A stretch of 61,866 nt of DNA, counting the filler, from Candidatus Woesearchaeota archaeon (lineage in GTDB: Archaea; Nanobdellota; Nanobdellia; Woesearchaeales; GCA-2687795): the NCBI GenBank assembly GCA_030753365.1. It is 5 parts of 5 records of this genome, joined end to end, with 100 filler letters (N's around TTAATTAATTAA, not from the genome) between each part and the next. Parts side by side here need not be neighbours in the genome. Positions count along the whole stretch, not along the records: positions 29,766 to 45,325 come from JASMCJ010000047.1; 4 more parts are not named here. One strand, written 5' to 3'. The translations under genes and the position numbers were made by a program. Position 1 is the first letter of the stretch. Every line of letters begins with the position of its first letter. Below are positions 30,734 through 32,164 of this stretch, in pieces. The notes below the pieces were generated by a model that saw only the letters and a list, made by a program, of their open reading frames with translations, was not told where the DNA came from and made no database searches.

Positions 30734-30749
30734 ATTAAATGCGATTTTG

Positions 30750-30910
30750 TCAAGAACCACCCGTCAGAGATGGGTGAAATGTAATGGTTCATATGCTTTA
30801 TTATTCCATCCATTGGTGGTTCTTGAGCATGCTCAGAATTTTCCAGTGTTCTGACATCAGAAGCAAGTGGAACTTGCCATTAATCAGAGATATATAATGG
30901 AAAATTCTGA
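30750..30910. ncRNA. Candidate two-hairpin ncRNA upstream of tRNA-Asp
   Basis: Perfect 12-bp (TCAAGAACCACC/GGTGGTTCTTGA) and 13-bp (TCAGAATTTTCCA/TGGAAAATTCTGA) closing stems with internal helices. Confidence 0.4.
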
Positions 30911-31145
30911 CATTTGATAGCATTATCTCTAAACATGGGTTTTTTTGTGTCTAGAGAAAGGTTTTGAACATTAAATGTAGGATTCGCTTTTCATTTATAA
31001 ATGTTGCGTATTTTGGAGCATATTTTAGAGGAGAACTGGATTTTAGTGCGATTTTACCACTACTTTATCACAGGGAATGCCTTTTTTAACTAATATAAGA
31101 GTTTTTCGCAAATAATATGAGGAAAAGATGAAAAAAGAAAAAAAG

Positions 31146-31329
31146 TCCCCACCCCCGGATTTGAACCAGGAACCTATACCGGATTAATTCTTTCGGTGTT
31201 GGCTGGCTCTCTATCATTCCTTGCTTAAACGCATAAGGTCATAGAGCGCATCTTTGGCTCCTTTATAAAGGCACAGCCGAACGCTCTAGCCACTGCTCCT
31301 TGTTATTCACAAGATTGAGCTAGGTGGGG
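31146..31329 (-). tRNA. tRNA-Tyr(GUA) with four introns (15/16, 35/36, 37/38, 43/44)
   Basis: C1:G72 and A73 Tyr identity; acceptor CCCCACC/GGTGGGG; intact T arm; removing 22+19+54+16 nt leaves an exact 73-nt cloverleaf. Confidence 0.8.
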
Positions 31330-31363: not shown

Positions 31364-32164
31364 TTAAACTTTATCAATTTGTTCCTTTTTACGTAGATAT
31401 ACAAATTTATTTGTATTATAAATGCTTTTCAATTTTTTAATGTTTTTTCTTGTTGCAATTTTTAATTCAAATGTTTCTGACTTCTTACTTTTGTATATTT
31501 TTCCAGATGAAATTGTCAGACTTATTAATAATTCTTTTAAACTTCTTATAAATTTTTCTGAGCCAGAATTAATCTTAATCTGATTTGGTTGGATAGAACC
31601 ATCTCCATCGATTACCCCTCTTAAGAAAGCTATTCTTATTTTAATAGAATTATCCATTATTTTCTTAGGAATATCAACTATTAAAGATTTAGGCCCTGCT
31701 GGGATTTCATATTCAGAGATTATAATCTCAGCCAATTTTTTAGAAGATATCCTTATTTCATAATTTGGTTTTTTGTTAAAACCATATCTTCTTGAACTTA
31801 TGCCAGGAGTATAACTGAACAAATGTTGGATTAATTTTAGAATCATTTCCTTTTCTTCAGGGTAACTTGTATAAATTGCAACTTTATAATTTTTAATCTT
31901 TTTGTTGAAATATATATGTCCATCTGTGATTAATAATCCTAAAAAATAAGCAGAATCTTCATTTAAATCCATAAAATTAATCTTTTGGTAATATATTACT
32001 TTATAACCCGCTGATTTCATTAAATTATTCCATGAACCAAACAACTTTCTTGAATAACAATATAAAGTATTATCATCCCTTTTCTTTGGTTTTCTATTTA
32101 ACTTATTCTCTAGAATTTTTACTCTTTTTATTAATTCATTTTTTGAAATTTTTATTTTTTTCAT
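31364..32164 (-). CDS. Free-standing LAGLIDADG homing-endonuclease-like protein
   Basis: Two motifs, YFLGLLITDG and FLRGVIDGDG; N-terminal FGSWNNLM repeat-like motif. Confidence 0.85.
   Translation of the reverse strand: MKKIKISKNELIKRVKILENKLNRKPKKRDDNTLYCYSRKLFGSWNNLMKSAGYKVIYYQKINFMDLNEDSAYFLGLLITDGHIYFNKKIKNYKVAIYTSYPEEKEMILKLIQHLFSYTPGISSRRYGFNKKPNYEIRISSKKLAEIIISEYEIPAGPKSLIVDIPKKIMDNSIKIRIAFLRGVIDGDGSIQPNQIKINSGSEKFIRSLKELLISLTISSGKIYKSKKSETFELKIATRKNIKKLKSIYNTNKFVYLRKKEQIDKV

Follow-up and report, generated by a model that had tools for sequence, protein, structure and literature searches.

tRNA genes carrying several bulge-helix-bulge (BHB) introns have been described in Thermoproteales, ARMAN and Asgard archaea and in C. 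merolae (PMC3728597), and in the accounts available they have in common short BHB introns, non-canonical intron positions, a removal order in which the 37/38 intron is the last one, and the fact of being missed by standard annotators. For C. merolae, ordered removal with the 37/38 intron at the end has been shown, and the same source describes it for archaea as well (PMC3728597). The original prediction of the locus studied here took three introns as the ceiling for an archaeal tRNA, which does not stand in view of a 2026 preprint (bioRxiv 10.64898/2026.10.13.758758) that reports as many as five introns in a single Asgard gene. The tRNA-Tyr(GUA) gene analysed here, with four introns, resembles these systems in all the features above, the late removal of its 37/38 intron being a prediction. 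Unlike them, it belongs to a Woesearchaeales-type genome in which one EndA subunit was detected, three of its introns (35/36, 37/38 and 43/44) fall within tRNA positions 35-44, and one intron appears to give its neighbour an outer helix.

The guides within tRNA introns that reviews name, in their available text, are only of the C/D type, in tRNA-Trp (PMC4090602) and tRNA-Met introns, such as that of N. equitans (PMC3491384). Like the tRNA-Tyr intron described below, these are 37/38 introns with an L7Ae-type guide for their own anticodon arm; however, they direct 2'-O-methylation from a guide located 5' of the D box, whereas in the Tyr intron the strand that pairs follows the K-turn stem on its 3' side, which is the H/ACA arrangement. 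Furthermore, H/ACA-guided modification of U35 in pre-tRNA-Tyr has been proven for Sulfolobales (PMC2651775, PMC11077068), and the stand-alone Psi35 H/ACA sRNAs reported in those papers (Sso1, Sto1, Sac1, Mse2, Ape7 and sR115) have the same target, leave U35 and A36 unpaired and act on the intron-containing precursor. Nonetheless, each of them has a gene of its own, two guide strands and an ACA box, and their hosts possess a defective aPus7, whereas here the intron would itself be the guide and a TruD match is present. In structural terms, the atypical guides sR109, sR136, sR148 and sR563 from S. islandicus (PMC11077068) and those from Pyrobaculum (PMC4652768) share with the Tyr intron a K-turn hairpin, a short 3' guide, the lack of lower stem and ACA box, and a GA stem of 10 layers, the latter being reported as the determinant of productive H/ACA guides (PMC4652768). 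Guides with neither lower stem nor ACA box are reported to work, one of them using the 3' strand only with a 6-bp duplex; Cbf5 acts in cis on two of the atypical guides themselves (sR109 and sR563, from Sulfolobus islandicus), depending less on Gar1 for this modification, and such guides required Gar1 for external substrates in vitro (PMC11077068). Unlike the predicted Tyr guide, which is intronic, aimed at its own host tRNA and encoded where Gar1 was not found, the Sulfolobus and Pyrobaculum guides are free RNAs with rRNA targets. The literature search, with subscription journals outside its range, retrieved no H/ACA-like guide inside a tRNA-Tyr intron in the text accessible to it, and the available part of PMC12397907 holds nothing on this archaeal group.

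Gene structure and splice sites

The gene lies on the minus strand at 31329-31146 of the window, i.e., the whole stretch of 61,866 nucleotides that was analysed, which is a set of contigs from the genome of a marine archaeon, the host. The 184-nt precursor of this tRNA comprises five exons, interrupted at positions 15/16, 35/36, 37/38 and 43/44 by four introns with lengths of 22, 19, 54 and 16 nt, respectively. ARAGORN calls the spliced product of 73 nt as tRNA-Tyr(gta), with a GUA anticodon in a complete cloverleaf, the C1:G72 pair and A73 of archaeal tRNA-Tyr, and the loop CU-GUA-GA, exactly as had been proposed, and all the exon and intron boundaries of the original prediction were found to be correct. 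It had also been anticipated that standard scanners would miss the gene and, on the unspliced window, neither ARAGORN nor an Rfam search detects a tRNA at this locus.

Exon 1 (31315..31329; tRNA positions 1-15, including C1), delimited by the ARAGORN call on the spliced product and by the orthologs, is followed by the 15/16 intron (31293..31314), whose central helix forms 4/4 pairs with positions 10-13 and whose intron-side helix has 5 bp. Exon 2 (31273..31292) covers positions 16-35 and ends in U35 (31273), the predicted modification target. The 35/36 intron (31254..31272) splits the anticodon, pairs 4/4 with positions 30-33 and has an intron-side helix of 4 bp, and behind it comes an exon 3 of 2 nt (31252..31253; A36 and G37). 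The split anticodon and this minute exon, both part of the original prediction, are real and recur, with exon 3 being identical, in all 8 other carriers of a 35/36 intron. After the 37/38 intron (31198..31251), exon 4 (31192..31197; positions 38-43) leads to the 43/44 intron (31176..31191), with a 4/4 central helix with positions 38-41 and an intron-side helix of 2 bp, and exon 5 (31146..31175; positions 44-73, including G72 and A73) is followed by a T-run. The introns at 15/16, 35/36 and 43/44 thus have what the BHB definition requires, i.e., the 4-bp central helix with which they had been described, cuts 2 nt into 3-nt bulges and at least one flanking helix. Apart from this gene, an intron at 15/16 occurs in one ortholog (L010) and an intron at 43/44 in three (L002, L003 and L213).

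The 37/38 intron, for which the absence of a textbook BHB had rightly been noted, does not fit the full definition and shows a relaxed motif only: its central helix has 2/4 pairs, with C32.A and U33.C unpaired, the anticodon stem serves as the outer helix, and the intron helix has 2 bp. The pair at C32, absent here, is kept at 37/38 in 68/76 Tyr and 15/15 Asn introns, this gene and five others being among those without it. Relaxed canonical sites, with helices of 2/4 or 3/4, are also found in 11/15 Asn introns and in several genes of the host genome.

A functional gene in an intron-rich tRNA set

The four-intron locus is genuine and almost surely functional. A chance origin is dismissed because two intronless orthologs (L019 and L173) have the same mature anticodon loop, a spliced-tRNA search recovers the gene de novo, and three out of three shuffled controls gave no match scoring above 15. 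The locus is present in 20 DNA runs from 16 studies, one of which may be the source sample; among three runs compared, two, from different studies, span the gene with a single contig and 0 differences, and the third covers it with two overlapping contigs. It is highly improbable that we are dealing with a pseudogene which can no longer be spliced, since the features that would suggest it have their counterweights. The central helix at 37/38 is merely 2/4, yet this pattern is shared with 5 other genomes and with the canonical site of the host tRNA-Lys(CUU); a LAGLIDADG gene and an IS200 transposase sit upstream, yet the cloverleaf is flawless, and a related natural variant, whose sequence ends at the 15/16 boundary, has all its listed differences inside introns. 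Moreover, a second tRNA-Tyr, the search for which had been proposed as a check, was not found in the host genome (897 kb, 94.5% complete), where this is the single Tyr gene among the 30 of the spliced census, a level of completeness at which another one could nevertheless be unassembled.

That census consisted of a spliced search over the 251 kb of the host genome outside long ORFs. Out of its 30 tRNA genes, 5 are intronless, 8 have one intron, 12 two, 3 three and 2 four (the Tyr gene and tRNA-Ile(GAU)), that is, 25/30 are interrupted, with about 1.6 introns per gene; the scorer took the Tyr 43/44 intron for a long variable arm, and this intron was counted by hand. ARAGORN accepts 30/30 of the spliced products and three shuffles were empty. 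The census is incomplete, since another, partial spliced search gave two additional genes. Such figures show that DPANN tRNA sets are badly under-annotated. Within the order, 79 Tyr genes were examined, with four introns in 1 (this gene), three in 3, two in 15, one in 58 and none in 2. They come from 60 loci and 80 fetched stretches, with 150 of 203 matches (141 genomes) and Tyr-looking rows favoured, which yielded 113 parsed genes (81 Tyr and 32 Asn-like) from which two Tyr rows were left out (L212, atypical; L235, cut off), and the exon pattern used misses genes interrupted within positions 18-35. Four introns are thus extreme and no record, given the up to five in Asgards and the host tRNA-Ile(GAU), which also has four, and the gene is of a known kind.

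Regarding the splicing machinery, the host encodes RtcB and one EndA gene of 200 aa matching both Pfam models, with N. equitans as its best structural match. Compared to M. jannaschii (1a79), the host EndA has no insertion, and the N. equitans enzyme (3iey) carries 6 additional residues close to the catalytic His. For DPANN, a loop-bearing alpha4 EndA with an L3 loop has been proposed (PMC5829648).

Several other tRNA genes were noticed along the way. In the same window, a tRNA-Asp(GUC) gene (30733-30608, minus strand) has two introns, canonical and in the T-loop, and is missed by ARAGORN and Rfam, and a tRNA-Lys(UUU) gene (30582-30436, minus strand) has three, in the D-loop, at the canonical site and in the T-loop. 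Just upstream of tRNA-Asp, a 177-nt stretch (30735-30913) is a variable insert, being swapped for 11 other letters in the contigs of all three DNA runs compared. In the four-intron tRNA-Ile(GAU) gene (G000:C28:21201-21033, minus strand) all central helices are 4/4. Near-copy T-loop introns are found in tRNA-Gly(UCC) and tRNA-Ile(UAU) (contigs C15 and C13; 103 nt) and in tRNA-Ala(GGC) and tRNA-Ile(GAU) (C3 and C28; 40 nt), which suggests that introns are copied between genes of unrelated tRNAs. The canonical introns of tRNA-Trp (46 nt; G000:C58:1115-960, minus strand) and elongator tRNA-Met (53 nt; C64:3876-4003, plus strand) carry a K-turn-like motif and a 5' strand able to pair with the anticodon loop, in a way that puts C34 five bases from the box, so that by inspection they are likely C/D-type self-guides; a K-turn-like motif is also seen in the 42-nt canonical intron of tRNA-Phe (G000:C18:110-249, plus strand).

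A K-turn module in the 37/38 intron

Among the matches listed for the order, the 37/38 intron is at least 30 nt long in 76/79 Tyr genes, and these 76 introns, of 49-68 nt, share a common layout. A variable 5' arm leads to GA, the capping hairpin and a 3-nt bulge whose last base is U; then come a second GA, a 3' arm of 8 nt, and CAG or UAG followed by YY. In the present gene, the 5' arm of the stem (31242..31249) leads to the predicted K-turn (31214..31240), with the 5' GA at 31240-31239, the capping hairpin, the 3-nt bulge at 31218-31216 and the 3' GA at 31215-31214; the 3' arm (31206..31213), of 8 nt, amounts together with the two G.A pairs to 10 layers, and is followed by the predicted 3' guide strand CAGCC (31201..31205), which pairs with tRNA positions 30-34 and leaves U35 as the first unpaired base. 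By its agreement with the K-turn consensus, this hairpin is taken to be a K-turn, with a predicted L7Ae site.

The conservation of this module is reflected in several measures. The 5' GA is present in 70/71 genes. When anchored only on the best helix with exon positions 34-27, the TGA starts exactly 10 nt upstream of the guide strand in 71/76 genes and 11 nt in 3, the other 2 being mis-anchored; this count was used in place of one that picked the spacer by the longest guide (56 at 8 and 17 at 11-12), which was confounded by overlapping TGA words. The two arms of the stem covary, with a mean duplex energy of -6.5 for own pairs vs -2.0 kcal/mol for cross-genome pairs in 70 genes, the own partner ranking third or better out of 70 for 47 genes, and 71 distinct 3' arms were found among 73 genes. 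A per-layer ungapped count gave a weak contrast (3.5 vs 2.8 pairs) because the stem has bulges, and duplex energies were used instead. The capping hairpin is more stable than its shuffles in 66/73 genes. The strand after the hairpin pairs with position 34 back to 30 or further, over 4-8 bp, in 76/76 genes, so that below the hairpin U35 is the first base left unpaired. Guide strand and splice strand occupy distinct sequences in 15 genes, which means that the guide is more than the splice helix, and a perfect 37/38 splice helix is found in 9 of these 15 vs 1/61 of the others; in most genes, the two strands overlap in one sequence that is used in two registers, offset by three bases. The pairing with the exon shows one compensatory case only (L004), and the slid-register control is partly circular, as the guide strand was chosen by CAG/TAG. 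The module motif occurs in 0/15 tRNA-Asn introns that follow the same GRCTGT exon. Among the matches listed, Tyr genes with the module are also found in a few named Woesearchaeota and Nanoarchaeota records, and three Methanosarcinales-labelled records (L051, L084 and L087) have the same K-turn module in their tRNA-Tyr intron.

The GGCTG/CAGCC helix of the original prediction is thus real and conserved. It had been seen as a competitor of the 35/36 intron helix, which falls short of what it is, since CAGCC is the conserved 3' strand of a module present in 76/79 Tyr genes. The further nested introns that had been suggested were not found. Chance 4-bp helices with flanks do occur inside the 54-nt intron, and nested processing is known in some archaea (PMC3728597); nevertheless, successive 4/4 excisions, up to five of them, never produce a 7-nt GUA loop (33 states when a flank helix is required, 1040 when it is not), no nested motif is conserved among the 76 orthologs, and any internal cut offset is common to at most 17 of them, which makes removal by several nested BHB steps hardly credible.

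A putative self-guide for pseudouridine-35

From the sequence, we lean towards the 37/38 intron being a cis-acting, H/ACA-like guide for the pseudouridylation of U35 in its own tRNA. The features of the atypical guides are found here, i.e., a K-turn in the upper stem, 10 layers from the pocket to the G.A pairs and a 3' guide directly 5' of the target U, with 5 unpaired nt connecting U35 to the stem in this gene, and the module resembles the H/ACA arrangement in view of the 10-layer rule, the working ACA-less guides, one of them with a 3' strand only, and U35 as a proven target. The elements of a classic guide are not found: there is neither a lower stem nor an ACA/ANA box 14-15 nt from the pocket (at 13-16 nt, ANA gives only 16 matches over four offsets in the 76 genes, and ACA none), and no conserved 5' guide, as a two-strand guide would have, is seen among the orthologs. 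The host genome encodes Cbf5, Nop10, L7Ae, EndA and RtcB. Cbf5 is present in 58/61 genomes of the order, and Gar1 was detected in 0/61, the host included, with a profile model that also misses 1/4 archaeal controls. The host Cbf5 frame, with a total of 841 aa (L032:1321-3342, G000:C10), contains an apparent intein that bears LAGLIDADG-like motifs, and the Cbf5 frame of another genome, G050, is also long (812 aa). An intronic C/D guide was considered as well and rejected by inspection, the strand 5' of GA being the variable stem arm and its implied target differing between L001 and L002.

There is a competing account in which the K-turn is a processing element, with L7Ae protecting the intron, blocking wrong cuts and presenting the weak 37/38 site, TruD/aPus7 making Psi35, a modification it can carry out unaided, and the splicing order being the same. 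It draws on a TruD sequence match in 58/61 genomes, this one included, on the P. abyssi aPus7, which makes Psi35 with or without the intron (PMC2651775), on Gar1 and an ACA box not having been found, on a 37/38 splice helix that is imperfect in 66/76 genes, and on the fact that the guide register offers 4/4 helices that, if cut, would lead to dead 6- or 8-nt loops. We regard it as unlikely, albeit worth keeping in mind, for it leaves unexplained the fixed 10-layer spacing (71/76) and the existence, in 15 genes, of a CAG strand apart from the splice strand, and the K-turn motif is absent from Asn introns whose helices are just as weak. Even less probable, to the point of being rather doubtful, is that the intron acts in trans after its excision, on another precursor or another RNA: this is how the tRNA-Trp intron C/D guide works (PMC4090602), the Trp and elongator Met introns of the host look C/D-type and fibrillarin is present, yet the only conserved single strand of the Tyr intron matches positions 30-34 of its own tRNA, the cis helix forms at 0.99, and inspection revealed neither a second box pair nor a consistent D-box target.

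If the self-guide reading is right, it would account for the persistence of a long tRNA-Tyr intron throughout an archaeal order with reduced genomes. In that case, the Tyr intron would be to H/ACA guides what the tRNA-Trp intron is to C/D guides, and a possible root of the intron-dependent Psi35 of eukaryotes.

Predicted order of splicing

It is quite probable that splicing is ordered, with the 37/38 intron leaving last. Ordered splicing had already been suspected in the original prediction. The order would follow from the 37/38 motif, which spans positions 32-37 and by the BHB definition requires this exon to be contiguous, so that the 35/36 intron must leave before. In the fold of the full precursor, the BHB helices of 15/16, 35/36 and 43/44 coexist at 0.95, 0.89 and 0.97, with the D stem and the anticodon stem open; once these three introns are removed, the guide helix forms at 0.99, its fold being more stable by 5.4 kcal/mol than the one in which the anticodon stem is closed, and by 9 than the splice register. 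Across the 76 whole-precursor folds, the guide helix exceeds 0.5 in 49, in a folding model that has no K-turn or protein term.

These folds can be arranged into a pathway that, taken as a whole, we hold to be slightly favoured: three introns with perfect helices first, the guide for U35 afterwards, and the relaxed removal of the 37/38 intron at the end. According to the computed fold, the transcript would initially form its three local BHB helices together, with the start of the 37/38 intron and exon positions 20a-27 as the outer helix of the 35/36 BHB, a pairing that would occupy the 5' arm of the K-turn stem; cleavage at this stage is presumed. EndA and RtcB would then take out the introns at 15/16, 35/36 and 43/44. 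This would let the K-turn hairpin form, with CAGCC pairing with positions 30-34 and U35 lying 10 layers below the K-turn in the computed fold, and the resulting one-sided H/ACA-like guide would likely let Cbf5-Nop10-L7Ae turn U35 into pseudouridine. In the last step, the weakest of all, the guide strand would slide three nt into the splice register, the anticodon stem would close, and EndA would cut at 37/38 despite the 2/4 central pairs. The 184-nt precursor offers a compact test system for a single-subunit EndA at relaxed sites, for Cbf5 working in cis with neither Gar1 nor an ACA box, and for new introns beside functional ones.

The 35/36 intron and its neighbour

The 35/36 intron is present in 9/79 Tyr genes, all with a 4/4 central helix and one of them (L004) with a compensating exon change. 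In these nine genes, the 37/38 intron pairs through its initial 11 nt with exon positions 20a-29, at a mean of -10.4 vs -3.7 kcal/mol in the 67 genes with no 35/36 intron, and a fixed register between exon 27-22 and intron nt 3-8 gives 6/6 pairs in 9/9 vs 0/67 genes, with three pair types (U-G, U-A and C-G) at position 27. The start of the 37/38 intron would therefore be available as the outer helix for the 35/36 BHB; in the present gene, where this helix uses the 5' arm of the K-turn stem, it would mask the guide until 35/36 is spliced. The coupling is a strong lead rather than a result, because the register was defined post hoc on the same nine genes, the intron starts are near-identical in six of the nine carriers, which may share one origin, and the present gene is the only one of the nine in which the computed 35/36 helix dominates (0.89, with 0.01-0.40 in the other eight), its long outer helix lying 1.7 kcal/mol above the MFE.

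On these grounds, a more elaborate scenario can be put forward, tentatively and with rather less than even confidence: a cis-acting and Gar1-independent Psi guide where, in the lineages in which a second intron hit the target site, the 5' arm of the guide intron became the outer helix for the EndA removal of the invader, which would in turn release the guide. If true, this would amount to a clock written in RNA, with splicing, modification and again splicing as its steps and with the excision of one intron depending on another.

The nine carriers belong to nine families and fall at scattered places in a quick RpoA1 tree (28 genomes, G019 being left out and G001 having no marker), with 9 changes, at least 4 of which are forced by well-supported branches, and the 35/36 trait differs within two same-genus pairs. 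Repeated gain with convergence, horizontal replacement and binning error could each contribute to this scatter. In two same-genus pairs (G002 and G130; G050 and G150), the tRNA-Tyr exon letters and the intron types differ, in one pair apparently at the same locus, and whole-gene replacement is a possible explanation for this. An upstream LAGLIDADG gene as the carrier of the gene type was rejected, since, judging N-terminal sequences by eye, a recognisable nuclease is the nearest upstream ORF in only 1 of the nine 35/36 carriers, the present genome. In the window, this LAGLIDADG-family gene (31364-32164, minus strand) ends some 35 nt ahead of tRNA-Tyr and comes after an activase-like pair and the IS200 transposase, and in many relatives a large secreted-looking protein is encoded upstream of tRNA-Tyr in its place.
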